Made by a program: the position numbers and the translations under genes. Below, one piece after another: positions 3,625-36,100 of a DNA stretch of 36,267 nucleotides. The notes beneath the pieces are model-generated. The model made no database searches. It was not told the origin of the DNA and worked only from the letters and a program-made list of their open reading frames with translations. The first letter of the stretch is position 1; each line of letters starts with the position of its first letter. Source of the stretch: Chiloscyllium plagiosum (lineage: Eukaryota); NCBI RefSeq assembly GCF_004010195.1, contig NC_057754.1, forward strand, positions 6,436,197 through 6,472,463, given 5' to 3'.

Positions 3625-3815
3625 AGGGCATGGCCAATCCACCATGTGGACAATTTAGCACGGCCAATCCACCCTACTCTGCACATCTTTGGACTGTGGA
3701 AGGAAACCCCACGCAGACAGGGGGAGAAGATCCGAACTCTACACAGCCAATCCCCAAGTGGGGAACTGAACGCGGGTCCCTGACGCTCTGCGAACCACTG
3801 AGCCACCATGCCACC
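3625..3815 (-). mobile_element. HE1-like V-SINE, degraded
   Basis: GGTGGCATGGTGGCTCAGTGGTT head and V-domain on the minus strand. Confidence 0.8.
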
Positions 3816-4034: not shown

Positions 4035-4735
4035 TCAGACCTTTGAGTATAGAAGTTGCGACGCCATGGTGGGGTTGTACAGGACATTGGTGAGGCCTCG
4101 TCTGGATCACTGTGTCCAGTTCTAGCCGCCCTGTTACAGGAAAGATGTTATTAAACTGGAGAGGGGTCAGAAGTGATTTACCAGGATATTATCAGGTATG
4201 GAGGGTCTGGGTTATAAGGAGAGGCCGGATAGGCCAGGACATTTTTTCACTGGAGTGTAGGAGGTTGAGAGGGTGACCTTATAGAGGTTTATAAAATCAT
4301 GAGGGTCATGGATAGGATAAATAGGCAAAGGGTTTTTCCCCAGGATAGGGGAGCTCAAAACCAGAAGGCATGGGTTTAAGGTGAGAGGGGAAAGATTTAA
4401 AAGCAATCTCAGAGGCATATGTTTTACACAGAGGGTGGTGCATGTGTGGCATGAACTTCCTGAGGAAATGGTGAATTGTGGGTACAGTTACAACATTTAA
4501 AAGGCATTTGGATAAGGACATGAACAGGAAAGGGTTTGGAGGGACATGGGCCAGGAGCAGGCAGGTGGGTCTAGTTTAGTTTGGGGATTATGGTCGGCAC
4601 GGACTGGTTGGGCCGAAGGGCCTGTTTCTGATGATGGGCTTATGCCTGAAACGTCGACTCTCCTGCTCCTCGGATGACCTGCTGTGCTTTTCCAGCCACA
4701 CTTTTGGACTGAAGAGTCTGTTTCTGTGCTCCATC
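4035..4735 (+). mobile_element. CR1/HER1 LINE 3' end with a Penelope-derived insert at about 4626-4704
   Basis: Translates to LYRTLVRPRLDHCVQF.. and FTQRVVHVWHELP. Typical 3' UTR GGGCCGAAGGGCCTGTTTC. Insert has CTGATGA-T-GGGC-TTAT-GCCT-GAAACGTC at 4628-4655. Confidence 0.85.
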
Positions 4736-5313: not shown

Positions 5314-5813
5314 NNNNNNNNNNNNNNNNNNNNNNNNNNNNNNNNNNNNNNNNNNNNNNNNNNNNNNNNNNNNNNNNNNNNNNNNNNNNNNNNNNNNNNN
5401 NNNNNNNNNNNNNNNNNNNNNNNNNNNNNNNNNNNNNNNNNNNNNNNNNNNNNNNNNNNNNNNNNNNNNNNNNNNNNNNNNNNNNNNNNNNNNNNNNNNN
5501 NNNNNNNNNNNNNNNNNNNNNNNNNNNNNNNNNNNNNNNNNNNNNNNNNNNNNNNNNNNNNNNNNNNNNNNNNNNNNNNNNNNNNNNNNNNNNNNNNNNN
5601 NNNNNNNNNNNNNNNNNNNNNNNNNNNNNNNNNNNNNNNNNNNNNNNNNNNNNNNNNNNNNNNNNNNNNNNNNNNNNNNNNNNNNNNNNNNNNNNNNNNN
5701 NNNNNNNNNNNNNNNNNNNNNNNNNNNNNNNNNNNNNNNNNNNNNNNNNNNNNNNNNNNNNNNNNNNNNNNNNNNNNNNNNNNNNNNNNNNNNNNNNNNN
5801 NNNNNNNNNNNNN

Positions 5814-5966
5814 TCTCTCAACTATTGAGGAAAGCTGTTACAATTGTTTCATTCATAAAAACATGGGGGAGGTCCGGCAACAGTTTCGAGTGTCTGCTTG
5901 TGTTTACTATAAGGTAGAAAAGACTAAAATGCAGCTAACCATTTAAAAATTACACTAACCCCTACA
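5814..5966 (-). repeat. 3' LTR (U3 part only; remainder in gap)
   Basis: Matches 14540-14689 with 4 substitutions and 2 indels by my alignment. Starts TGTAGGGG on the minus strand right after the PPT. Confidence 0.95.
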
Positions 5967-5968
5967 AA

Positions 5969-5986
5969 TCCCCCGCGTCTTTTCTT
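5969..5986 (-). other. Polypurine tract
   Basis: AAGAAAAGACGCGGGGGA, then TT, then the LTR-opening TG. Confidence 0.9.
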
Positions 5987-6000
5987 ACGGCCTGTAATTT

Positions 6001-7923
6001 TTAAACCGTAAGTTTCTTCTCCAGGGCGTTTAATAACTCCCGAGCTTGTTCATCAAACTGCCCGTCTCTAATACTACCCCCGCCCAAGAGGGATTCACGT
6101 TGTTCCATCTCGAGATTCATTCGTTCAACCTGCCCATAGGGAACATCCCTCTTAGTAAGGGCGGTTTCGATCAGTCGTTGAGTTAATCCCCGGACGCAGG
6201 GAATAACGCAACACCCAAAGGCAGTGAGTACCCCTGCCACCACTATACATGAGACAAGAAAGGGAACGACCACCCCCGTCCATTTACCGAACCAAGCTTC
6301 CAACCAGTCCGTGAGGCCAGAGTCGATGCCCGAGTTTTCAGCCAGTTCGTCCGCCAATGTGGTGAGTCCATCCAGGGCGCGGGTGATGGACCCATCAGGG
6401 GCTGTGTTGTTGGGGATGAAAGTGCAGCACTGAGTGCCTATCATGACACAAACACCCCCCTTCTCTGCCAACATCATGTCTAAGGCCAACCTATTTTCCC
6501 ACGCCATCCTACTAGTGGCGTCCAGTTGTTCTGGTATTCCTTTCACTGCATCCCGGGTATAATTAATGAATCTCTGCTGATTGTAGTAAATATAATTAAT
6601 CCAATCCACGTTCTTATTGATGGTCACCCACCAGAATAGTGACGACTTAAAACCCGCCGCTATCTGGTTCCTAGCCTTGTATTCGTCAGGAACACCCCTG
6701 GGGACCCCTATGGCATCTAAACATATGTTATCATCGAAAGAGGTCTCCAAAGCTCTCTCAGTTCTTCCACTGGAACGGGGTTGCTCTTGTTGTTCGAATG
6801 CCAGGGTGAATGGGATGGCCAATTGAACGATTGCACAAGTGCCCGTCCATTTTCGGGGCAGGGTCGGTCGCAGAACCCTCCCACCACAGTACCACCAGAG
6901 GTCTGCCCTAGGCACATGAATGTGGGAGTAATTCCCGCCCCCGGTAGCTTCATTGACCAGCCGAATTGATCCGCTGCACTTGTCAAATGTCCGCACATCG
7001 TTGTCCCACTGTAGTCCCGTCCGAGAGACGCAGGCCTGGTGCGTACCCGTTACCCCTGAGAATGATGGCGGGCGGGGCGCCCCCTCAGACCTGGCGGGGG
7101 GAAACTTCAAACTCAAGTGTCGACAAGTGGAGTCGTTCCAGGCCTCTCGATCCTGGTACAGCCTTATCATGCAGTCCAAGGCTCGTGGGTGTTTCTCCCA
7201 TCCCAGCGGGAATGGGACCACCTGAGGGTTCGGGCGGGCACTCGTGCATGCGTAGCAATCTCTCTTTTTCATGCTCCTCACAGTATATTTGACCCATTCC
7301 ATTCAGGCATTCGCCTCCCCGTATCCCGTTTCTATTTCAAAGGTCTTTTCCAAATCCGTCACCTCAATTATTCTAATATTTTCCTGTTCATCGGTGGCGG
7401 ATGAGCCCCCAGACTCAGCTTCAATGATCGTGATATGCGTGCAGCACAGCTGCAACCCCTCCCGTCCTGCCTGGCCCCCAACCCTAATACCCAGTATTAA
7501 GGCTCGCCCCGTTGTTTCCCAAGTTCTTTACGGTCAGATAGAGCGGATTGCACTGGTTCTGCCCACAATCCCGTCCAGGGGTGATGGGATTATGGACAAC
7601 TGACACCATAGCCTGGACCCCTGGGCTGGAGGCCTATTTATCCCTTCCCTACCATGCAATTGTAATACTAACGTCTGACCTGGAATCCCCTTTCTCTCTC
7701 TAGGTTCTGCTTAGTTTGATTCAGTTCTCCTTTAGTCCCACAGGGCACCAACCCACATAGGTCTAAGCTAAATGTCTGTGTTGGCTTGTTGGCAGGCACG
7801 GAGATGGAGAACCACTGACGGTCCTCTGCTTGTTTTTTTCCGGAGGCCAAATTGGGTAACACGCACACTATGACCCAGCCCAAGGATAATGGCATAGCAA
7901 GTTAACAATACGATTGACCGCAT
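6001..7923 (-). pseudogene. env: env (gamma-type); disrupted in the N-terminal SU, open for 433 codons at 6001-7302
   Basis: Signal peptide MRSIVLLTCYAIILGLG at 7923. CXXC (CYAC), degenerate furin site RTER, ISD-like ENRLALDMMLAEKGGVC, CX6CC (CVMIGTQCC) and a hydrophobic TM helix. TGA at 7303-7305 in ..GYGEANA*MEW, with frameshifts upstream. Confidence 0.93.
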
Positions 7924-7991
7924 TTTGTCGCGACACCTGTAGCCAGAGGGCACAGTTCCTTTAGACTCGCCAAAGTCCGATCAGTTTGTTC

Positions 7992-10900
7992 TCAGGGTCT
8001 CTGTTCCTTAGATGCCTTTGTCAGAGAGGTTCGTTCGTCCTCCGTCGGTTGTGGCACTGGTCCCTTGACTCGAGTGTAATGTGTCCAGCCCTATTCGGCC
8101 GTACGGACAGCCGTTTCGGTAGTCAAAAGTACCAGGAAGGGACCGTCCCAAGTTGGTTCGAGGGTACGTTGCTTCCAGCTTTTAATCAGGACCCACTGAC
8201 CCGGCTTGACGGTGTGCAACGCAAACTCGAGGGGCGGCGTCTGTGCCAAAAGTCCCTGTTGGCGTAAACGAGATAGAGCAGACCCCAGAGCCACCACATA
8301 TTTTTGCACAAACATATCTCGAGACTCGAATACAGGAGGTTCCCCCTTCGGCCCATGGAACGGGAGGCCAAACAGCATTTCGAAAGGGGAGACGCCCAAA
8401 TCCCGCCTTGGCTGGGTGCGAATTTGCAATAGGGCAAGGGGTTGGCATTTGGTCCAAGGCAGGCCGATTTCACTAGTGAGTTTGGTTAGTTGCTTTGTGA
8501 TGGTCTGGTTCATTCTTTCGACCTTGCCAGGGAGTGTGCAAAGCCCAGTCAATCCCCATTGCTTGCACTACATTCTGGAGGACGGTCGAGGTGATGTGGC
8601 TCCCCTGGTCAGAGTCAATAGCGCGGAGTAGCCCAAATCGTGGGATGATTTGTTCGAGTAGAATTTTGCTAACCTGAATTGCCGTTGCCGTGGCAGTGGG
8701 GAAAGCTTCCACCCAGGTGATCTACTACTACTAATAGATACTTCAGGCGACCTGTGGGGGGGAGCTCAGTGTAATCTACCTGGACATACTCAAACGGCCT
8801 ATAGGCCGGACCCCTATCCCCTTGTGTTGCATGCTGCCGCAGCCCACTTTTGTTAATCTATCGACATGTTATGCAATCTCCTGTGACCTGCTTGGCTACC
8901 GTGTACAGACCAGGGTGAGCATATCGGCGCAGGAAGGCATCACACAGTGCCTGGGCGCCCCAGTGACCCCCTTGGTGTAGACGGGCAATAATATCCCGCG
9001 TCAACGGTCGATTTAGTAGCTGGCGGCCATCGGGTAAGGTCCACTTCCCTTCCCTATCCTTTCTACCCCCCAGAGACGCAAGAAGAGTTTCTTCTTTGTC
9101 GGTAAACGTGGGGACTTCGGTAATTTCGGATATCTGGGGAATCCTTACCAGGCAGTTTATTACTTCCTTCCCCATCCCGGCCAATTTTGCCTGTTCATCT
9201 GCCAATTGGTTCCCCAGGGTCTCTATTTTATCGTCTTTCTGGTGCCCTTTCATATGTACTACAGCAATCTCTTGTGGCAGCAACAAATCTTCCAAGATCA
9301 TGGCTACTAGTTCCTCGTGCACCAACTTCTTTCCTCTGCTATTTATCATTCGCCTTTCCTTCCAGATCTTCCCAAAGGTGTGTACTACCCCAAAAGGCAT
9401 ACTTAGAGTCAGTGTAGATTGTCCCGGCTATTCCCTTTAAATTCCTCAAAGCCCGGTGCAAGGCGTACAATTCGCACGTTTGTGCGGACCAGGCATTCGG
9501 TAGCCGTCCACTTTCCACTAATTCCCAACCAGTCTCACTAATGACTGCATAACCGTTGTGTCTCTTCCCATCTATCACTCGAGAGGACCCGTCAATGCAC
9601 CACCGCCTTCCTGCATGTAAGGGGGTATCCCTCAGATCTTCCCTCACTTTACTCTGGTACTCTATTATGTCTGAACAGCAGTGTTCCAGTTCCTCCTCCC
9701 CTTCCCCTTTCCAAAGAATGTCCGCCGGGTTCTGGCAGCCCCCGACTTCTATTCGGAGGTCTTCTCGGTCTAACAATATGGCTTCATATTTCAGAATTCT
9801 CGAGTCAGTCAGCCACCTCCCAGCCTTCTGATTCAGGATAGTTCTAATCTGGTGGGGAGCAGTGACTGTCAAGGGGGCCTCGAAAGTCAACTTCCTGCTT
9901 TCCTCTACCAGCTTTGCCGTGGCTGCCACCACTTGGACACACTCCGGCCACCCTCGGGAGACTGGATCCAGAATTTTTGACCGGAAAGCCACGGGCTTCC
10001 TTTTTCCCCCCAATCCTGGGTCAATACTCCAAGAGCGGTTCCCTTTCTGGAGATCACAAAGAGACGAAATGTCTTACTAAAATCCGACAAGCTTAAAATA
10101 GGTGCGGTCATCAATTTTTCTTTTAGGATTCCAATTAATTGTTTCTCCTCCTCCTCCCATTTTATTCTGTTGGGTGCCTCCTCAATGAGTTTTAGGTACA
10201 AGTCTTTAGAAAGGGGGGCACAGTCGTCTATCCATAACCGACAATAGCCTAAGAGTCCCAAGAACTTCCGCAACTCCCTCTTGGTCGTTGGGAGGCCTAG
10301 TTCGATTATTGCCCGCACTCATTCCGGACTTATTCGTTTCTGTCCCTGGCTTATCAAGTGTCCCAGGTACTTAACCTCTTTCTCGACATATTGGAGCTTC
10401 TTCTGACTAACTCTTAACCCCTTCTCAGCTAGGTAATTTAACAGGGCATTAGTCCCAAGTAGGACGTCCTCCTCCGCGGGTCCGGATAAAAGGACATCGT
10501 CCATGTATTATATAAGCTTAAGGGCTGGGGACAAGGTTAGTCCCTCCAATAATTGTTCCAGAATCTGCCCGAACAGAGTCGGGGACTCAGTGACTCCTTG
10601 GGGGAGCACGGTCCACCTGTACTGCTGTTTTCTGCCAGTATCAGGATCCTCCCATACAAAAGCAAAAAGATCCCTACTGTCCTTGTCCAGGGGACACGCC
10701 CAGAAGGCATCCTTTAAGTCTATAACACTAAACCAGCCGTTGTCCGGAGGTATTCGCCCCAGAATAGTGTATGGGTTCGGTACCACAGGGTGCCGTACTT
10801 GGACAATTTTATTTACTTCCCTTAGGTCTTGGACCATTCGGTAGCTCCCGTCCGACCTCCGGACCAGCAGGATGGGGGAATTGTATCGTGACATACAGGG

Positions 10901-11471
10901 TTCTACCAATCCATCTTTTATTAGGTCTTCCATAACTGTCTTCAGACCCTGCCTCCCTTCCCAAGAGATGGCGTATTGGCGCACTCTGACGTCGGGGCTC
11001 TGGGGCTTTAATTGTACCTCCACAGGTCGAATTGCGAGTCCCCCCCCGGTTCCCTTTGGCGACCCAAACCCTAGGGTCTATCTCTGTCAATCGGGACTCA
11101 CTAAGGTATGACATGGTAACGGCTAATTCATCCTCTTCTCCCACTTCTATTCGTAATCCGAAACGGACTATCAAATCCCGTCCCAACAACCCATAGGGAA
11201 GATGGGGGAGGTGAAGGAGTTCCACCTGGAGCTCCTCCTCCTCCAGCCGCAAGGGTTGTGGTTCGAATATTTTCGCACTAAAAACCCCACCCTTAACTCC
11301 TGAAATGTTTAATGTTTTAGCCTGGAAGCCAACCCCCCTAGGATGGAGGGGGATTGAGGACCAGCCGGCGCCTGTGTCAACTAAGAAGATAACATCTTGT
11401 CTAAATGGGCCCACCCGTAAATTTACCAGGGGTTCTTGGTAGGCCCGTGTTCCGATCCTCCCCTGACTTCC
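7992..11471 (-). pseudogene. pol: pro-pol (PR, RT, RNase H, IN) with several stops and frameshifts
   Basis: PR FLVDTGA and LLGRD. RT IDLKDAF, LPQG, YMDD (preceded by TAA at 10508-10510). RNase H IDGSS, SAQTCEL, YTDSKYAF. IN HHCC (HQGGH..CITC), DSDQG, GKVERMN, WDGPF. Confidence 0.97.
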
Positions 11472-11474
11472 CTA
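11407..11474 (-). promoter_or_regulatory. gag-pol UAG read-through signal with candidate pseudoknot
   Basis: TAG GGA AGT CAG GGG continues in frame to the protease (GSQGRIGTRAYQEPLVNLRVGPF..DTGA). Pairings CAGGGG/CCCCTG and GGGCCTACC/GGTGGGCCC. Confidence 0.75.
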
Positions 11475-13726
11475 ATCCATTTGTTCACGCTCCATTTCAT
11501 ACAGCCCTTCTCTTTCCCTTTTAAACTCGGGACAATCCCTTTTGAAGTGTCCCAGTTTCCCGCAATGGTAACATCCAGCCATTGGAGGCCGCTCAAATCC
11601 ATAAAATCCTCCTCTCTCACTTCTGCCCCGTCTCGCTTCTCTCCCTCTCCAACTTTTCTTCGACATTCCTCTTTCCACCCCATAACCTCCCTCCCCNNNN
11701 NNNNNNNNNNNNNNNNNNNNNNNNNNNNNNNNNNNNNNNNNNNNNNNNNNNNNNNNNNNNNNNNNNNNNNNNNNNNNNNNNNNNNNNNNNNNNNNNNNNN
11801 NNNNNNNNNNNNNNNNNNNNNNNNNNNNNNNNNNNNNNNNNNNNNNNNNNNNNNNNNNNNNNNNNNNNNNNNNNNNNNNNNNNNNNNNNNNNNNNNNNNN
11901 NNNNNNNNNNNNNNNNNNNNNNNNNNNNNNNNNNNNNNNNNNNNNNNNNNNNNNNNNNNNNNNNNNNNNNNNNNNNNNNNNNNNNNNNNNNNNNNNNNNN
12001 NNNNNNNNNNNNNNNNNNNNNNNNNNNNNNNNNNNNNNNNNNNNNNNNNNNNNNNNNNNNNNNNNNNNNNNNNNNNNNNNNNNNNNNNNNNNNNNNNNNN
12101 NNNNNNNNNNNNNNNNNNNNNNNNNNNNNNNNNNNNNNNNNNNNNNNNNNNNNNNNNNNNNNNNNNNNNNNNNNNNNNNNNNNNNNNNNNNNNNNNNNNN
12201 NNNNNNNNNNNNNNNNNNNNNNNNNNNNNNNNNNNNNNNNNNNNNNNNNNNNNNNNNNNNNNNNNNNNNNNNNNNNNNNNNNNNNNNNNNNNNNNNNNNN
12301 NNNNNNNNNNNNNNNNNNNNNNNNNNNNNNNNNNNNNNNNNNNNNNNNNNNNNNNNNNNNNNNNNNNNNNNNNNNNNNNNNNNNNNNNNNNNNNNNNNNN
12401 NNNNNNNNNNNNNNNNNNNNNNNNNNNNNNNNNNNNNNNNNNNNNNNNNNNNNNNNNNNNNNNNNNNNNNNNNNNNNNNNNNNNNNNNNNNNNNNNNNNN
12501 NNNNNNNNNNNNNNNNNNNNNNNNNNNNNNNNNNNNNNNNNNNNNNNNNNNNNNNNNNNNNNNNNNNNNNNNNNNNNNNNNNNNNNNNNNNNNNNNNNNN
12601 NNNNNNNNNNNNNNNNNNNNNNNNNNNNNNNNNNNNNNNNNNNNNNNNNNNNNNNNNNNNNNNNNNNNNNNNNNNNNNNNNNNNNTCCCCCTGTTTATAA
12701 GGCTTCTGAGATCTGTCATATTGGCCCGTCCCCCCGCGTCGTTATGATCCCACCGGGGGTCCTCTAAGGGGTACTTCTGCTCTCCACGCTGAGGGCCGTC
12801 CTGATGCTCGCTATCCCAAATGGCCATTGCACTATTCCGGTTCATAACAATTTCATCGTAATTAAATAGTATTCTCATCATGGCCTGCAGTTCAGCCCAT
12901 GTGTATATACTGGGCACCAGAAATTGGTCCAGTTGTATTCCCACACTGACGGGGTCGTCCAGTAGACGGGGTAGTTCGTTACGGAGTTTCTGGATATGCC
13001 CAGAATTTAAAGGTTGTACTACGAACCCGGTCAGTCCGTTCCCAAACGGCACCTCTCGTAAGGGGTTCAGCTGTTCAATATTGTCACTCCTCCCAGCTCT
13101 CAATTCCTCTTCTCGGCCTTTCCGCATCTCGAGTCGGACTGATTTCCTAGTGCCTGGGGTGGGTTCTGCTCCCCCTCCTGTGGCCCCCCAGCCGTCCCTT
13201 CCTCACTGGTCGTAGCCTGCTGTGAATCGGATTTATCTGTCGCAGGAGGGAGGTCCGCACTGGACGCCTGGTCGTGCGCGGGTGGTATATACGGGGGCGG
13301 GACAGACGGTGGCAAACCGTCGGTGAGGATGTCCCAAGACTTCTGGGGCTTCCTCGGGTCTGTTTGGGGAATCAGAGGATAAAGACGCGTGGGACCCTCG
13401 CCGTCGCCCGCCAACCAGGCGGCGGCGTATTTGCTCTCTTCTGGGTCAAACGGTTGTTTTCTGTTAACATATACATTTAGGATTTGACACACCCAGTCTT
13501 CATCAGACCCATACTCGGGCCAATCTACCGAGGGGGCGCGGATAGGTTCTTTGGTCCATATAAAACAACAATATTTTATCATGGTCTCTTTCTTTAAGTC
13601 CTTCGTTCTACTACTGTCCGTCCATAGACTTAACCTCCGACCTAGTGGACTATCGGTGGGTATTTCTTTCCCATTTGCAGTCTTCCCTGACTTCTCCTTA
13701 GTCAATCTAGAAGTCTGATTTCCCAT
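11472..13726 (-). pseudogene. gag: gag, with one visible frameshift near 13100-13150 and a 990-N gap in CA
   Basis: MGNQTS myristoylation start, PPPY late domain, CA start PLREVP, one visible zinc knuckle CYHCGKLGHFKRDC, TAG at 11472-11474. Confidence 0.95.
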
Positions 13727-13730
13727 GGTC

Positions 13731-13862
13731 TATCTTCGGTCCTGGTCTTAAACGTCTAAAACGTTTTCACAGATGACCGTCAAAACCACAATTTCCCGTG
13801 GTTTATCTTCGGTCCTGGTCTTAAACGCCCAAGGCGTTTTCACAGATGACCGTCAAAACCAC
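13731..13862. repeat. Direct repeat of about 59 bp (period 73) in the ERV leader
   Basis: TATCTTCGGTCCTGGTCTTAAACG...CGTTTTCACAGATGACCGTCAAAACCAC at 13731 and 13804. Confidence 0.9.
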
Positions 13863-13891
13863 GCGGCCAACAAGGAAGAACAAAAGAAACT

Positions 13892-13901
13892 CTCTTACCT
13901 T
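13892..13901 (-). promoter_or_regulatory. Putative major splice donor of the ERV
   Basis: AAG|GTAAGAG on the minus strand between the PBS and the gag ATG. Confidence 0.6.
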
Positions 13902-14169
13902 GATCCGTGCACGGAGTTGTCTGGCCTTTTTAAATGTGTGTACCCCCGTGTATAGTCACTAACTGGTCGTCCCAGCACTCGTCCGTGTGTTCCTTTTTCC
14001 AGGATTCAAAATTATTTTTAAATGAGCCGGGTCACATCCTCTCTTGGCCGACGGCCGACGGACCAAGCTGATCAGTGAGAAGTATAAATATATACTATAC
14101 GCGTCTTTGTTGTGATCAGGCTTGATCAGTGAACCGAAGAGACTTCTCCCCCCCGGCAATAATTATTTA

Positions 14170-14187
14170 ATCCCGGAGGAGCCCCCA
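14170..14187 (-). other. Primer binding site, tRNA-Pro
   Basis: TGGGGGCTCCTCCGGGAT matches the canonical Pro PBS TGGGGGCTCGTCCGGGAT at 17/18 positions, 2 nt after the LTR-terminal CA. Confidence 0.93.
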
Positions 14188-14189
14188 AT

Positions 14190-14689
14190 TGTGCGAGATA
14201 TGCGGCTGTCCGGCCCCATCTCCGGCACTTTTATTTCCCTTCCCAGGAACAAAGACATGGAGGAGTCTGTCAAAAACTTTTTCATTCAACTTTGCAAAGT
14301 CGGGTGTTGTTCCCGTGGGTACACACACAAGCATAGTAATCTCCACGCATTATATACGTGTATATGTGGGCTGGGTCTCCTACTGCTGTCTTGACCAATG
14401 AGTGCTAGGGTTCCCCACTGTTTTCCTTATTTGGGTTCTGGTGCCTGCGATTATTTTGTTATTCACTTGGCCAATCAGTGTTCGAGCTCCCCATTCTTTC
14501 CTTATATGGATGATGTTGTACAACTGTGGTTAAGGGCGGTCCCTCAACTATCGAGGAAAGTTGTTACAATTGTTTCATTCATTAAAAACATGGGGGAGGT
14601 CCGGCAACAGTTTCGAGTGTCTGCTTGTGTTTACAGGTAGAAAAGACTAAAATGCAGCTAACCGTTTAAAAATTACACTAACCCCTACA
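14190..14689 (-). repeat. 5' LTR, 500 bp
   Basis: TGT...ACA termini, TATATAA at 14356-14350 and AATAAA at 14235-14230. Confidence 0.93.
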
Positions 14690-17600
14690 ATATTCGTAAA
14701 AAAGTCAAGGGGGATATATTCCATGACTATCCTGGGCCAAATTGAAAGTCCTCGGGAACCTTCGGATATCCAATTCACTAAAATGTTTTTTTTCCCGGTC
14801 AAAAGGCAAGGATAATGAATAATTTCCTCCCGCATACATCCAAACAAGGGAAATGTGGGGAGCCCAAAAGTAGAGGCACTGGGTCCCACCCAATCTCTGT
14901 ACCCAAAATCATTGCCAAGGCATTCACTACTCTGTACAAATACATGCGTATCTTACGGCATGTCCACAGACAATGCGTGAGAGTACTAACTTCTATGTTG
15001 CATGTAGGCCACATTGGAGATGCTCCTGCCTTGAACTTTGCAAGTCGCCCAGGTGCCATTTGAGCCCAATGAAGTATCTTGAATTGGATTCTGTTACAGA
15101 TAGACATCTTCCTGGCGTTTTTCCAGACGTCCTCTCACATCTCCAAGGAGATTACCATCCACAATACTTGACTCTATGTTTTATATAACCGTTCCTTGTC
15201 CTTTGATACCTTATTAAATAGTTTGTGGTAGAGAGTACTTACCGCGAGCGGACCCATCGGCCGAAGCACTCTCCTTTCCCTATCTGATTTATATGGATTA
15301 ATTATCAGTACGGTCTTCTTTTGTATAAAGTATCGTATTTGAAAATATTGAAAAATATATTTACTAGACAGCCCAAATTTCTGACGTAGCTGTTTGAAGG
15401 ACATCATGACCTCCCCATTGAACAGGCCTCTCAAACAGAAGATACCTTTGCACTCCCAGGTTCTGAATACGCATCAGTCAGCCCTGGCTGGAATCCCAAC
15501 GTTCCCACTATATGGGTATGGTGGAGGATTTTTGTAGGTTGCCCTCAACCTGTCGCATTATCCTCCAGGCTTTGATTATATTTAATAAAGTAGGATTTTT
15601 ACAATGATCGTAACAACTGTCATCTTGTCCATAAATAGTAGATTGATGAGGGATATTTTGCTTGGGAGGCCTCATATCTAACCAGATTGTTTGTGGGTCA
15701 CAAGAGACCCAATCAGCTACGTAGGACAATAGAGAGCTCAATTGGTACCTCCTGAAATCCGGAAAATCCAACCCACCCCTTACTTGTGGAAGCTGCAGCT
15801 TTTCTAATTTAATAAGGGGCCGTCTCTGACTCCAAATAAAGTAGCCGAGCCAACCATAAAGGTTACGCAGCGCCTGTTTCGGCAGCATCAAGGGGAGCAT
15901 TCTCACAGCGTATAACAGGTGAGGTAGGATATTCATGTTGACCAAAGCTATTCTATCTCGCCCGGATATCGGGAGATCTTCCCAGAGTTGAAGGTCCTAT
16001 CTTATTTTCTCCAATAAATGTGTATAATTGGCTTTATATAGCTTCTCCTTTCCCTATCTGATTTATATGGATTAATTATCAGTATGGTCTTCTTTTGTAT
16101 AAAGTCTCGTATTTGAAAATATTGAAAAATATATTTACTAGACAGCCCAAATTTCTGACGTAGCTGTTTGAAGGACATCATGACCTCCCCATTGAACAGG
16201 TCTCCCAAACAGAAGATACCTTTGCACTCCCAGGTTCTGAATACGCATCAGTCAGCCCTGGCTGGAATCCCAACGTTCCCACTATATGGGTATGGGGGAG
16301 GATTTTTGTAGGTTGCCCTCAACCTGTCGCATTATCCTCCAGGCTTTGATTATATTTAATAAAGTAGGATTTTTACAATGATCGTAACAACTGTCATCTT
16401 GTCCATAAATAGTAGATTGATGAGGGGATATTTTGCTTGGGAGGCCTCATATCTAACCAGATTGTTTGTGGGTCACAAGAGACCCAATCAGCTACGTAGG
16501 ACAATAGAGAGCTCAATTGGTACCTCCTGAAATCCGGAAAATCCAACCCACCCCTTACTTGTGGAAGCTGCAGCTTTTCTAATTTAATAAGGGGCCGTCT
16601 CTGACTCCAAATAAAGTAGCCGAGCCAACCATAAAGGTTACGCAGCGCCTGTTTCGGCAGCATCAAGGGGAGCATTCTCACAGCGTATAACAGGTGAGGT
16701 AGGATATTCATGTTGACCAAAGCTATTCTATCTCGCCCGGATATCGGGAGATCTTCCCAGAGTTGAAGGTTCTATCTTATTTTCTCCAATAAATGTGTAT
16801 AATTGGCTTTATATAGCTGACCAAATGCCGGAGTATTAAAAATACCTAAGTAAACAAAACATCCCAGTGACCACCGAAAGGGGAAACGAGATCCATCCTT
16901 AAAATTGGATATACTGGCAAGACCTCCCAGCGGCATGGCCTCCGATTTCATAAAATTAATTTTATAACCTGAGAACATACCAAATAAGTTAACCACTTGA
17001 ATTAAGAGGGGCACAGATGTCAATGGATCATTTAAGAAAAGGAGGTCATCATCTGCATACAGAATAATTTTGTGCTTGCCCGATCCAAACTCCAGAGTCA
17101 TTATATTAGTGTCTGCTCATGTAGCTTCCATGAACAACTCAATCACTGGTGTAAATAATAATGGTGAGAGAGGGCATTCCTGACGACAACGTCTCCTAAC
17201 GCTAACGCTATCCGAACTTAAACCACTGCTTTGGGATCATTAATTAATACTGTTACCCATTTAGTAAAGACCTCTCCAACACGAAACCGTTTCAGTGCAT
17301 AAAAGTGATATGGCCATTCTACCCGATTGAATGCCTTATCTGCTTCTAGGGAGATAACCAATCCCGGTATCTGGCTTATAGCATATTTAAGACTCTTCTA
17401 ATGTCATTAGTTGATCTGCGACTCTGCATAAACTCCGTCTAGTCCTCTTTTATAACGAATAGTAAAACCGTCTCCAGTCTTAATGCCAACATTTTTGTGA
17501 GAACTTTAAAATCCACATTCAACAAGGACATAGGTCTATATGAAGAGCAGTCATCTGGGGCCTTTCCCTTCTTAAGAATGAGTGAAATATTTGCTTCTCT

Positions 17601-18976
17601 CAGAGAAGGCGAGAGGCATCCCTGACTATGTGAGCAATTATACATATTTATAAGTGGCCTGGCCAATTCCCCAATACATTATTTGTAGAACTCAGCCTGG
17701 AATCCATCTGGTCCGGGCGCTTTGCCACCCTAGAGCTACCTTACCTCGTCATGTACTTCCTGGGTTGCCGGGGGCGGCATTCAAGAACAACACCTGCTCC
17801 AAGGTTAGGCCCGGGAGGGCAGATTTTTTTTAAAAAAAGACTCTATCTTCCTCGTTCTATCCTCACAGCCCTTTGACCTACACAATTTGAAACAGAACTT
17901 TGTAAAGGCTGCATTGCTCATTTCACGATCACAAGTCAGGCTACCAGCGCTCTTTCTAATAGAGGTAATGGCTTATGGAGCCTTTTTTCTTTCTGGCAAA
18001 ATATGCTAGATACCTGCCAAGCTTGTCACCGTATTCAAATAATCTCTGCTTCGCAAAAAAAATCTCCCTCTTTGCTATTTGAGTAAATGTGGGATTCAAA
18101 GTTGCCCTAAGAACTGTGATCCGCTGTAGTTTAGTAATGGAGGGTCTATCCACATACGCTGTCTCAGCCGCCTTCAGGCGAGCCTCGAGCAGACACTGAT
18201 GTTCTCCCTTTTGTCTTTTCCGTGGCACAGAATATGAGATAACCAAGCCCCGCACGTATGCCTTACCATTCTCCCACATGACTGAAGGGTTACTGGCCGT
18301 GCCTGAGTTGATATCCCAGAAGGTTTTAAATTGCTGCGAGAAATATTTAATGAACTTACTATCCTTCAATAGAAAAGGGTCCATACGCCAATGTCGGGAA
18401 GCTATCTCGTCATCACTAGTGTTAACCTCCATATATACTGTGGCATGTTTGGAAATAGTTATATTACCTACTTTACAAAACAATATTGAGTTCAAAAGGG
18501 TCGAGGGGATAGAAACATATCGCTTCATGTGTGGTACATGTGTGGGTTAGAATAAAAAGTAAAGTCTCTACCCTNNNNNNNNNNNNNNNNNNNNNNNNNN
18601 NNNNNNNNNNNNNNNNNNNNNNNNNNNNNNNNNNNNNNNNNNNNNNNNNNNNNNNNNNNNNNNNNNNNNNNNNNNNNNNNNNNNTAATATATATCATCCA
18701 GACTCTTCTTTTATCTGGCTTAGCATTTGGAAGGGAAGATTCTTCCCAGTAAGATTGGCAACTCCCCAACTTGTTGAACTGAATGATGAAAAGAACACAA
18801 CGCCAAATCCAACCTGTTGCCGCTTCGAATGCTCCTTATCAAGTAGATGTGTTTCCTGTAGAAGGGCTACATCCACCCTTTCTTTTATTAAGACTTATTA
18901 ATATAATTTTCCTTTTGATTGGTGAGTGGCTCCCCTTGACATTCCAGGTGCACCACCTAAACGAATGACTAGCCAT
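14690..18976 (-). pseudogene. L1 ORF2 (APE endonuclease, RT, C-terminal Cys-rich region)
   Basis: TWNVKG, LLQETHL, PGPDGF, YRPMSLLNVDFK, PLSPLLF, LYADD, YLGI, GGLDFPD, C..THCLWTC. Many disruptions. Confidence 0.92.
15270..16818. repeat. Tandem duplication of about 775 bp (15270-16043 and 16044-16818)
   Basis: Two near-identical head-to-tail copies, reflected in duplicated ORFs 15508-15945 and 16394-16720. About 7 differences seen. Confidence 0.95.
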
Positions 18977-19559
18977 GATAGTCCAAGCAAGTCCGAGAAC
19001 CCCCAGGAGGGAGATCCCCACCCAAAGACATTGGATAAAAACCAAAAATGATACACACATAAAACACTCTTTAAGACAGCTAAATCAAAATAAATAAGAG
19101 CCACTCCTAAAAACAAATAAAATAAAACATATTTAAAAGGAGACTTTCCCCTTTGTTCACAAGGGGCACTACTACCTTCTAATAATCTCACCACAACATC
19201 TCCCAGCCAGAGGCATGCCCTCGGCCCAGGCATTAAAAAGTAGAGTAAATAACTTCCAACATCTTATAAGACAGAAGTTAAATGTGGGCGACCCCCCACA
19301 CGAACACCTCGATACACTTAGCAAAACAACACAAGATGAAAATAAATAAAATTACAATCCCAGCAAGTAATAATCAAACAATTTTTTAAAAACACTCAGA
19401 AACGTCCCCCAATAATCAAATAAACTGCACGAGCTATAGATAAGAGTCCATAGAAAGGATAAGGAATTAGCACTCCCCCTCCCCCACCGCCATGGAAAGA
19501 TACAGAAGAGAAAAAAGGAAGAAAAGAGGAGAAAACAAAAGAAGAAAAGGGGCAAAATA

Positions 19560-20383
19560 AAGTCATTATCCATATCGTTCAAATCCTGCAGTCTATTTAA
19601 GAGCATCCAGGAATTCTTTTACTTTTTTCCCGGTGTCTGAAATCATCTACAGATCCTCCATGACTGCAGCACAGCGTTGCCGGCTATCGCATAAAATATT
19701 GAATATTTAAATCCCAAAGACGCTTCTTCGCCTCATCAAATGCCTTCCTCTTGCGGACCACACGCAGAGAACAACATTATCCTGGAGCCCCTGTACATCT
19801 TGGCATGGGGATCCTTCTCCAACACTCTGGTGGACTCCAGCAACATCGGTTTTTCCCTCTTATATTGAAGTTGAACTCTCACCTGGCAGGGGCGCTGGTC
19901 CGACCCGAGCCGGCGCACAGCAACCTGATGGGCCCGCTCAACCGGCACCCAGCCCAGCTCCGACTCCAGTTTCAGCAGCTGTGGGAGCCTTTGCTCCAGG
20001 AAATCAACAAGCTGCCCTTCCTCCTCCCGTTCGGGAAGGCCCAGCAACCGAATATTTTTCCAATGACCTCGATTTTCGAGGTCATCAATATGTTCATCTA
20101 AGGTCGGGACTCGATGTTCCTGAGCCCAGACCTGAGCCATGGATGACTCAGCAGTGGTTTTGGAGGCTGAGGCCCGTTGCCCCGCCCTACCCTGCCCGAG
20201 TTTCTCGATCTCTCCATCATGTTTCTCCATCATGACCCCCACCTGGGAGTCAATGGACTCATCAATCTTCTCTCAGAGTTGTAGAAACTCCCTGCAGGTA
20301 ACGCCCCTTTCTCTGTTGCTAAGGGGTAGTGGGGGAGAAGTCCCTGGCTGTTATGAACTGCGAGAGCCTTTACCTCTGGTCAT
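19560..20383 (-). pseudogene. L1 ORF1 (coiled-coil/RRM type); 3' boundary approximate
   Basis: DDLENRGHWKNIRLLGLPERE and ERAHQV..RP motifs. Likely ATG at 20383. Confidence 0.85.
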
Positions 20384-25878: not shown

Positions 25879-26172
25879 GGGCGGCACGGTGGCACAGTGG
25901 TTAGCACAGTGCCAGAGACCCTGGTTCAATTCCCGCCTCAGGCGACTGACTGTGTGGAGTTTGCACATTCTCCCCGTGTCTGCGTGGGTTCCCTCCTGGT
26001 GCTCCGGTTTCCTCCCATGGTCCAAAGATGTGCAGGTCAGGTGAATTGGCCATGCTAAATTTTCCGTACTGTTAGGTAAGAGGTAAATGTAGGGGTATAG
26101 GTGGCTTGCGCTTTGGCGGGTCGGTGTGGAAGGGCCTGTTTCCACACTGTAAAGTAATCTAACCTCATCTAA
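25879..26172 (+). mobile_element. HE1-like V-SINE, near full length
   Basis: A box TGGCACAGTGG, B box GGTTCAATTCC, V domain, CR1-derived tail GAAGGGCCTGTTTCCACACTGT and (ATCTA)n-like end. Confidence 0.9.
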
Positions 26173-29677: not shown

Positions 29678-30370
29678 NNNNNNNNNNNNNNNNNNNNNNN
29701 NNNNNNNNNNNNNNNNNNNNNNNNNNNNNNNNNNNNNNNNNNNNNNNNNNNNNNNNNNNNNNNNNNNNNNNNNNNNNNNNNNNNNNNNNNNNNNNNNNNN
29801 NNNNNNNNNNNNNNNNNNNNNNNNNNNNNNNNNNNNNNNNNNNNNNNNNNNNNNNNNNNNNNNNNNNNNNNNNNNNNNNNNNNNNNNNNNNNNNNNNNNN
29901 NNNNNNNNNNNNNNNNNNNNNNNNNNNNNNNNNNNNNNNNNNNNNNNNNNNNNNNNNNNNNNNNNNNNNNNNNNNNNNNNNNNNNNNNNNNNNNNNNNNN
30001 NNNNNNNNNNNNNNNNNNNNNNNNNNNNNNNNNNNNNNNNNNNNNNNNNNNNNNNNNNNNNNNNNNNNNNNNNNNNNNNNNNNNNNNNNNNNNNNNNNNN
30101 NNNNNNNNNNNNNNNNNNNNNNNNNNNNNNNNNNNNNNNNNNNNNNNNNNNNNNNNNNNNNNNNNNNNNNNNNNNNNAGTATCAGTGTGTGAGAGATTGA
30201 GTATCAGTGTGTGAGAGATTGAGTATCTGTGTGTGTCTGAGATTGAGTATCGGTGTGTGAGATTGAGTATCTGCGTGTGTGACTGAGTATCTGTGTGTGA
30301 GATTGAGTATCTGTCTGAGATTGAGTATCTCTGTGTGTGTGCGTGTGAGATTGAGTATCTGTGTCTGTTT

Positions 30371-30742
30371 GAGACACGACCCTCTCTCCCTCGTAGCCCT
30401 ACACACGGATGAAAAAAAACCCACCATTTCGACTGGGACAACACATCTATCTTGGGACAGGCTAAGCAAAGACCTACCAGAGAATTGCTAGAACCCTGGC
30501 ACTCCAACCACGCCATAAACAAACGCATAGATCTTGATGCCATTTATTAACCGCTCAGAAAACAAACAGGAAATGACATCACCACAAACCCCAGGAAGCC
30601 CATCCAGGAGAAAGGTATAAATAGAAAGCAGGAGACAACAGCTTCGCTTCACTTGGAGGTCGCCACTGATGATGTTACCTAGCCAAGTAATGAAACGTCT
30701 GGATATCACACCTACAGCCCAGCGAGCAAACCTACACCCTAA
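30371..30742 (+). mobile_element. Penelope-like element 3' fragment (GIY-YIG C-terminus and pseudo-LTR with hammerhead)
   Basis: RHDPLSLVALHTDEK..HFDWDNTSILGQAKQR..RELLEPWHS..AINKRIDLD, then CTGATGA-T-GTTAC...GTAAT-GAAACGTC at 30666-30699. Confidence 0.85.
30663..30702 (+). ncRNA. Minimal type I hammerhead ribozyme motif (putative)
   Basis: Stem I CCA/TGG, CUGAUGA, stem II GTTAC/GTAAT, GAAAC, GUC. Confidence 0.65.
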
Positions 30743-31149
30743 GCCTGAATATCTGTGTGTGAGCCTGAATATCAGTGAGTGTGTGTGAACATTGTGTATG
30801 TGTGACATTCTGTATTTGTGTGTGTGATCAGAGTATCTGTGTTTGTGCTCATGTGTGATTGAATATCTGTACGACTATGTCTGCGCAAGATTATTTCAAT
30901 GTGCATCATGAAAGATTGACTGTCCCTCGCTATATACACACACACATGAATACGTGTGTCTGTGTCCCTACCTCAGTTGTGCCCACTCCTTTGGGCTTAC
31001 AGTTGTGTATACAGATTTGTGCACGTACCTGTATATTTCAAAAGGCCTTTCTCTCTTTATCTCGCCCTTTGAGCGGACGGTTGTGACTGTGTGTATGTCG
31101 CCACTCCCCACACCCTATGTGCATTTCATTTTTTAAAAAAAAAAATCAA

Positions 31150-35787: not shown

Positions 35788-36100
35788 CACAAACCCTCTC
35801 ACTCACGCAACATCTCCCTCCTCACTAACAGCATCCTCTCACAAACCGTTATACCCTCTCACTCCGAACTCATGCACACACTCTGCTCACTCCACACATC
35901 CAGCTTCAAACACACACGTCCTCCTCACCATCAAACCTCAGACACAAACCCTCTCACTCACGCAACATCTCCCTCCTCACTAACAGCATCCTCTCACAAA
36001 CCGTTATACCCTCTCACTCCGAACTCATGCACACACTCTGCTCACTCCACACATCCAGCTTCAAACACACACGTCCTCCTCACCATCAAACCTCAGACAC
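35788..36100. repeat. Perfect 155-bp tandem duplication
   Basis: 35788-35942 equals 35943-36097. Confidence 0.93.

Follow-up and report, generated by a model that had tools for sequence, protein, structure and literature searches.

What is a retrovirus that resembles a human one doing in a shark genome, and how close are the two? The question is raised by a minus-strand provirus in a 36,267-nucleotide (nt) stretch of Chiloscyllium plagiosum DNA (contig NC_057754.1, positions 6,436,197 to 6,472,463; hereafter the window), which an initial annotation had described as a near full-length endogenous retrovirus (ERV) similar to human endogenous retroviruses (HERVs) of the HERV-I/IP kind. In all likelihood, the element is a dead germ-line copy of a class I retrovirus from a multi-copy bamboo-shark family whose envelope (env) clusters with those of birds and with primate EnvP(b)1; the family probably belongs to a wide-host lineage that includes HERV-IP.

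The placement is carried by env. Among 59 rows picked from the matches, the window env shares 71% identity with a Mustelus protein; the values are 57-66% for other shark envs, 61-65% for near-full-length envs of birds, 56-57% for primate EnvP(b)1 orthologues (over 384 residues) and 56% for a bilby protein. Identity is 41-52% to bony-fish and frog envs (41-51% to bony fish) and 20% to murine leukaemia virus (MLV). By cluster look-up, the primate rows are tied to 6W5Y, the EnvP(b)1 domain of known structure. In a tree of 39 rows, sharks and birds form a clade (support 100/99), joined by primates (92/81) and then by the marsupial (98/97); a mixture model on 29 rows returns the same order (97/96, 95/88, 99/96). 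Bony-fish and frog envs fall outside this shark-bird-mammal clade, and a single env clade of birds and mammals is rejected by the approximately unbiased (AU) test (p-AU 3.0e-4). On sequence comparison, such shark envs group with those of birds and primates, not with bony-fish ones. Since the env and host trees disagree, the lineage has likely moved between sharks and amniotes, which implies neither direction nor date. One Chiloscyllium env (P0221) groups with bony-fish envs, indicating more than one env lineage in sharks.

Structure prediction adds modest weight, suggesting that the N-terminal domain of env folds like the EnvP(b)1 receptor-binding domain. The model of P0273, a 656-residue (aa) env, has a mean predicted local distance difference test score (pLDDT) of 61, with a weak N-terminal part. 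Its best structural match is 6W5Y (Foldseek E 5e-5; Z 6.8, root-mean-square deviation 4.1, 115 residues aligned; next Z 5.6). In sequence, identity between the N-terminal domain and that of EnvP(b)1 is about 26% in a weak alignment; a sister family aligns there at E 3e-12.

Reverse transcriptase (RT) gives a second view of the same element. Its tree comprises 37 rows, with references from virus records (gamma-type, WDSV-type L018-L020 and the fish virus L014); L018 is taken as walleye dermal sarcoma virus (WDSV) from its layout, 12,708 nt with a cyclin open reading frame (ORF) behind env. The window RT falls within a 17-row clade (100/99) of ray, skate, catshark, rattlesnake, corn snake, lizard and bird elements and further proteins, and quick trees of 64 and 52 rows give the same placement. 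Forcing it together with the WDSV-type and fish-virus rows is rejected (p-AU 9.5e-5), as is forcing it together with the MLV-type rows (p-AU 3.4e-7). The element is therefore no member of the genus Gammaretrovirus (MLV type), nor of the WDSV-type epsilonretroviruses, from which it also departs in having no env match to L018 and an env that reaches the long terminal repeat (LTR). This bears out the initial claim that it is of neither type; of the RT tree proposed at the time, the part with MLV-type, WDSV-type and shark elements was built, and it puts the element outside the MLV and epsilon (WDSV) clades. RT core identity is 55-67% to named members of the 17-row clade, 46% to MLV and 40% to WDSV. 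PDB match scores of RT (MLV-type 292 bits, foamy 123, HERV-K 95, HIV-2 76) and an MLV-type integrase C-terminus (MLVIN_C, E 5e-11) place the element in class I. Wider viral scans returned only gamma-, delta- and epsilon-type viruses and one fish virus, and when viral contigs were scanned with the closest Pol, 0 of 5 candidates proved to be relatives. Bird-type ERV Pol is also deposited as Klebsiella pneumoniae proteins (the P0051 cluster, P0264-P0269, and P0433), likely through host contamination of bacterial assemblies.

The joint HERV-I/IP label of the initial annotation survives in part. In a classification whose main criterion is Pol clustering, HERVI and HERVIP belong to different supergroups, the Env of ERVPB1 clusters with HERVIP, and the HERVIPADP supergroup resembles the avian ChiRV1 (PMC4724089). 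With the window env in a clade with EnvP(b)1 and bird envs, kinship to HERVIP is supported through env, and the evidence points to HERVIP rather than to the joint label. HERV-IP carries a tRNA-Pro primer site and HERV-I a tRNA-Ile site; the Pro-type site of the element (17 of 18 letters) fits HERV-IP and differs from that of HERV-I proper (HERVERI). A Pro site is common to MLV and the deltaretroviruses, so it discriminates little.

The anatomy is that of a simple class I retrovirus. On the minus strand, LTR, primer-binding site, gag, pro, pol, env, polypurine tract and LTR follow one another, with pro in frame behind the gag stop and the 3' LTR present only in part (Table 1). A Pfam scan of 14 pieces gave matches in 10, in genome order Gag_p30, zf-CCHC, RVP, RVT_1, RNase_H, Integrase_H2C2, rve, MLVIN_C and TLV_coat (Gag_p30, rve and some RNase H matches below the curated cut-off). 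Gamma-type Env is recognized by CXXC in the surface subunit (SU) and by an immunosuppressive domain and CX6CC in the transmembrane subunit (TM) (PMC9967133), and the window env has all three. The primer-binding site (14187-14170) shares 17 of 18 letters with that of an MLV-type record (L008), whose RT matches the solved MLV RT; 12 further records of the 17 are likewise one letter off. Reverse transcription of MLV is primed by tRNA-Pro. The visible part of gag is 89-94% identical to protein P0507, its amber stop lies at 11474-11472, and pro continues in the same frame. A pseudoknot predicted 3' of this stop is at most a lead for read-through, as its pair count was equalled in 3 of 78 control windows and the same search missed the known MLV structure. 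The leader duplication may be part of the packaging region. Env runs into the LTR and leaves no space for accessory genes 3' of it. The element is thus a simple class I retrovirus with a Pro primer site, gag, stop and pro in one frame, a gamma-type env and no accessory genes. Rfam gave 0 matches across the window.

Table 1. Features of the provirus in window coordinates.
Feature	Position	Strand	Remarks
5' LTR	14190..14689	-	500 nt, TG...CA ends
TATA-like box and AATAAA in 5' LTR	near 14356; near 14235	-	putative promoter and polyadenylation roles
Primer-binding site, tRNA-Pro type	14170..14187	-	2 nt past LTR
Splice donor	13893..13902	-	canonical donor; exon end 13899; junction contig in run X15
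73-nt tandem duplication, leader end	13718..13862	-	92% alike; its end overlaps gag start
gag	11472..13726	-	matrix (MA; has Gly2), proline-rich region, N-terminal half of capsid, gap, single CCHC knuckle
Assembly gap in capsid	11697..12685		989 N
Read-through context after gag stop	11387..11471	-	predicted two-stem pseudoknot, 8 + 9 pairs
pro-pol (protease, RT, RNase H, integrase)	7970..11471	-	gag frame; 3' end approximate
env splice acceptor	8255..8275	-	exon start 8255; first ATG downstream is env start 7923
env, gamma type	5965..7923	-	CXXC in SU, CX6CC in TM
Polypurine tract	5970..5986	-	within env frame end as read in relatives
3' LTR start	5814..5966	-	153 nt, broken off by 500-N gap

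The initial annotation had the gene order right, and the tRNA-Pro site, the YMDD motif, the quoted MA and RT stretches and the lack of accessory-gene space 3' of env were all found; it went too far in calling the layout complete, given the 989-N gap and the 153 nt of 3' LTR. Compared with relatives that have open frames, this copy shows 10 frame shifts and 6 stops across gag, pol and env. The visible part of gag has one shift (near 13180); pro-pol has five (near 11050, 10000, 9394, 8712 and 8527) and four stops (10510, 10321, 8860 and 8093); env has four shifts (near 7840, 7685, 7622 and 7497) and two stops (7305 and 6003). None of the three proteins can be made whole from this copy, and with two gaps, at 11697-12685 (the rest of capsid) and 5314-5813, and 16 breaks it is not the reconstructable full genome that had been proposed. 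The env end placed about 15 nt before the polypurine tract is a premature stop (about 14 nt ahead of it), ruled out as the true end by Chiloscyllium relatives, whose frames continue through the tract to 5965. Because the 3' LTR ends in the 500-N gap, the target-site duplication is unreadable. The two LTRs differ by 4 substitutions and 2 indels over about 150 columns (about 2.7%). The 4 substitutions give an age of 61 million years (range 17-157) at a published rate (PMC4422223) or 14 at 1e-9, bounds too loose for use and void if the two halves are two copies. The YMDD motif (10507-10496) was ruled out as a mark of the lineage, since 239 of 260 RT relatives have YVDD (YMDD in 4, another letter in 3, site uncovered in 14); it is peculiar to this copy.

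Comparison with database-predicted Chiloscyllium proteins turns the single copy into a family. Proteins of C. punctatum match the longest env piece (433 aa) at 95-96% identity and a C. plagiosum protein matches it at 94%, which agrees with the shark origin first guessed from the sequence. At 90% identity the env cluster holds 33 proteins, and the 15 listed comprise 14 from C. punctatum and one from C. plagiosum. Three of these, each on a different chromosome-size contig, are open frames of 656 aa that run collinear with 7923-5965 and share 96-98% identity among themselves. The high identity and the three full-length frames make the window element one decayed copy of a multi-copy bamboo-shark family. 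Six of the 15 listed members (P0275-P0278, P0281 and P0282) are 497-501-aa frames that start inside SU and have no signal peptide, which suggests a common broken sub-family that went on spreading. Compared with other relatives, the family and its sister in Mustelus have a less basic SU-TM cleavage site (env near 6770-6790; P0273, P0326). At least two more env families of the same clade occur in C. punctatum (P0124, P0133, P0149; 61-65% identical to the window env). Mustelus, Heterodontus and Scyliorhinus have multi-copy env families of this clade too, with 6 members in Mustelus and 22 in Heterodontus; P0123, P0125, P0127 and P0130 also belong to this set of relatives. The env lineage is widespread in sharks.

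Sequencing runs extend the picture to transcription. Near-identical DNA is present in 20 runs from 8 studies and two organisms (24-42% of sampled words), and 4 of 24 listed runs were aligned to the stretch in detail. In one DNA run, 1617 contigs align. Run X15 has depth across 5814-8374 and none across 8375-11526, and one of its contigs departs from the window at 8257 and goes on with leader 13901-13930, a GT-AG join of donor 13899 to acceptor 8255. The 201 aligned raw polyA reads of run X24 have nearly all one orientation, which by the usual library rule would be sense to the provirus. None of the runs holding the family sequence is listed as RNA. These data show low-level transcription of the family as a whole, not tied to this locus. 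In supplement file 10 of a published survey, both Chiloscyllium species stand without the asterisk borne by S. canicula (PMC10435555). The missing asterisk would mean that the older Chiloscyllium assemblies hold no copy with identical LTRs, and it counts weakly against current activity.

Several points weigh against the placement and the transcription reading. All shark envs as a single clade are poorly supported (62/22), and the tree rows were hand-picked among the best 120 listed of 643 env matches and of 476 and 518 RT matches. The trees hold no named human HERV-IP, HERV-ADP or HERV-I, ChiRV1 or lemon-shark Pol, so the link to HERV-IP depends on env, and env is frequently exchanged between viruses. 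Among 240 listed RT matches and 20 Pol clusters there was no named human HERV-I or HERV-IP Pol and no primate name; the 204 matches of an MA search included no named human HERV-I or HERV-IP Gag, and the Atlas clusters were generic matrix-protein ones. In the structure model, pLDDT of the N-terminal domain is about 26-64 per block, the underlying alignment included EnvP(b)1 rows, and a Z below 8 can mean a common fold. Sense-strand A content is about 27% (6001-11000), under the more than 31% of human HERVIP (PMC4724089); the element is a relative of the human HERVIP group, not a member. As for transcription, only 8 of the 201 X24 reads are at least 99% alike, about 2% of that run was read, and X15 and X20 were taken as RNA by guess.

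Other explanations differ in how much of this account they would change. The family is, somewhat more probably than otherwise, the catalogued ERV-GA.a-Cpu or a sister lineage of the same screen, with only this copy new; this is compatible with the placement above and lowers its novelty only. That screen looked in six cartilaginous fishes for ERVs carrying a gamma-type env, derived consensus sequences, named the gamma-related ERV-GA.a-Cpu and reported 46 orthologous ERV groups in Chiloscyllium, which makes the initial suggestion of an undescribed family doubtful (bioRxiv 10.1101/2021.11.23.469661). The family is also abundant in C. punctatum. However, the other related C. punctatum env families mean that the name ERV-GA.a-Cpu may belong to one of them, and in the preprint text covered the strings 'herv' and 'envp' have 0 occurrences, with no link to HERV-IP or EnvP(b)1 (bioRxiv 10.1101/2021.11.23.469661). 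A recombinant, with an EnvP(b)1-type env on a pol from outside the HERV-IP lineage, is improbable. Env has often been swapped among class I viruses (bioRxiv 10.1101/2021.11.23.469661), and env is 38% identical to L014 and 20% to MLV whereas RT is 35% identical to L014 and 42% to MLV, an opposite ranking that points to different deep origins of env and pol. Yet in RT and env alike the element groups with ERVs of birds and sharks, HERVIPADP has been noted to resemble an avian virus (PMC4724089), and the swap seems older than the whole clade, which likely took a fish-type env early.

The assembly raises a doubt of its own, and it is unlikely to about the same degree that the scaffold joins halves of two copies. 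The 989-N capsid gap is about 600-750 nt longer than predicted from relatives, which counts against a single provirus and allows for such a join, and the family offers many near-identical copies. Orientation, order and frame position nevertheless fit one genome, decay is similar in both halves (gag 89-94%, env 94% to relatives), and the LTRs lie only about 2.7% apart. By far the least credible, and already disfavoured, is that shark, bird and mammal members descended with their hosts from one ancient infection, with no jumps between classes. Slow shark evolution can keep sequences alike (PMC10587355), but bird envs lie closer to shark envs than to mammal envs, a single amniote clade is rejected, the envs of bony fish and frogs fall outside, and the copies are young against the shark-tetrapod split. 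The preferred reading is still a dead copy of a bamboo-shark family within a lineage that has likely changed host class.

Comparison with known systems sharpens this reading. With HERVIPADP/ERVPb1 and the avian ChiRV1 type, the element shares the env clade, the CXXC and CX6CC motifs, a predicted N-terminal fold and the Pro site, and its Pol goes with bird ERVs; it differs from HERVIPADP/ERVPb1 in its shark host, an env closer to bird than to primate envs and the lack of an A-rich bias, and EnvP(b)1 is a single kept gene whereas the bamboo sharks hold a multi-copy family. It resembles MLV (L008) in its simple genome, Pro site, in-frame gag, stop and pro, single CCHC knuckle, integrase C-terminus and spliced env, but its RT, 42% identical, belongs to a different clade (p-AU 3e-7), env identity is 20% and the window has no Gag_MA match. 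An aquatic host, class I membership and, in this copy, YMDD are shared with WDSV (L018) and the elephant-shark CmiERV II/III; unlike WDSV, whose RT is 36% identical, the window has no accessory ORFs and no env similarity, and the grouping is rejected (p-AU 1e-4). ERV-GA.a-Cpu, compared by description, likewise has gamma-related Pol, a gamma-type env and the same likely host genus. The lemon-shark ERV, likened by description only, also comes from a shark and has kin among human class I ERVs; its study reportedly rests on a single sequence, against a whole gene layout and a family here. That ERV is described as closely related to a human ERV and thought to have been cross-transmitted, and the elephant-shark lineages as epsilon- or snakehead-like (PMC4422223). 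Cartilaginous-fish retroviruses are scattered through the retroviral tree, with frequent host switches (PMC6001957). The lineage is thus already known from the lemon-shark fragment, and the bamboo-shark family is probably catalogued; the part not found in print is the env kinship of sharks, birds and EnvP(b)1. No paper was found that ties a shark ERV to EnvP(b)1 or describes the family by name, in a search that lay outside most subscription journals.

A decayed long interspersed nuclear element (LINE) spans 14690-20300 on the minus strand, gave no Pfam match in 4 pieces and is presumably L1/Tx1-like by its motifs; the provirus appears to lie within the final codons of its second ORF. The remainder of this LINE does not turn up to the left of the 500-N gap, and the true left flank is therefore missing. 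A direct repeat inside the LINE (15270-16724, period about 775 nt, 98-100% alike) is either a recent duplication or an assembly artefact. Elsewhere in the window, short interspersed repeats lie in both orientations (1-250, 1817-1904, 3647-3755, 4625-4705 and 25918-26035), which we take to be of a kind found in shark genomes. A 20-22-nt minisatellite adjoins a 500-N gap at 30164-30870, and 35788-36097 is a perfect 155-nt tandem duplication.

Judging from anatomy and gammaretrovirus biology, an intact member of the family would be transcribed from its 5' LTR. Gag would be made from unspliced RNA and Gag-Pro-Pol through read-through of the amber stop, and Env would come from a singly spliced RNA joining donor 13899 to acceptor 8255, a junction seen in one related run. 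Reverse transcription would be primed by tRNA-Pro. Entry would proceed through a disulphide-linked SU-TM complex whose N-terminal domain is predicted to resemble the EnvP(b)1 receptor-binding domain. Over longer times, such a virus likely passed between sharks and amniotes.

The copy itself is an ordinary decayed provirus and its family is of modest importance. It supplies a whole-genome anatomy for a shark lineage known from a fragment and, through the tested grouping of shark envs with bird and primate ones, a clean case of likely transfer between water and land vertebrates. Sequences akin to EnvP(b)1 were stated, on the basis of nucleotide BLAST, to be absent from avian and piscine genomes (PMC7683403), and the env kinship of sharks and birds to EnvP(b)1 would run counter to that statement. 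Sister copies, though not this locus, retain open env frames. A tentative idea, doubtful at present, is that the closest non-mammalian relatives of EnvP(b)1 are those of sharks and birds; given the full-length frames and spliced env RNA in the bamboo-shark family, some shark might then be expressing, or have co-opted, an envelope like EnvP(b)1 that shares its receptor-binding fold and derives from a jump between sharks and amniotes. The receptor and role of human EnvP(b)1 are open questions, and the shark and bird envs would offer natural relatives in which to compare the surface residues that have been kept.

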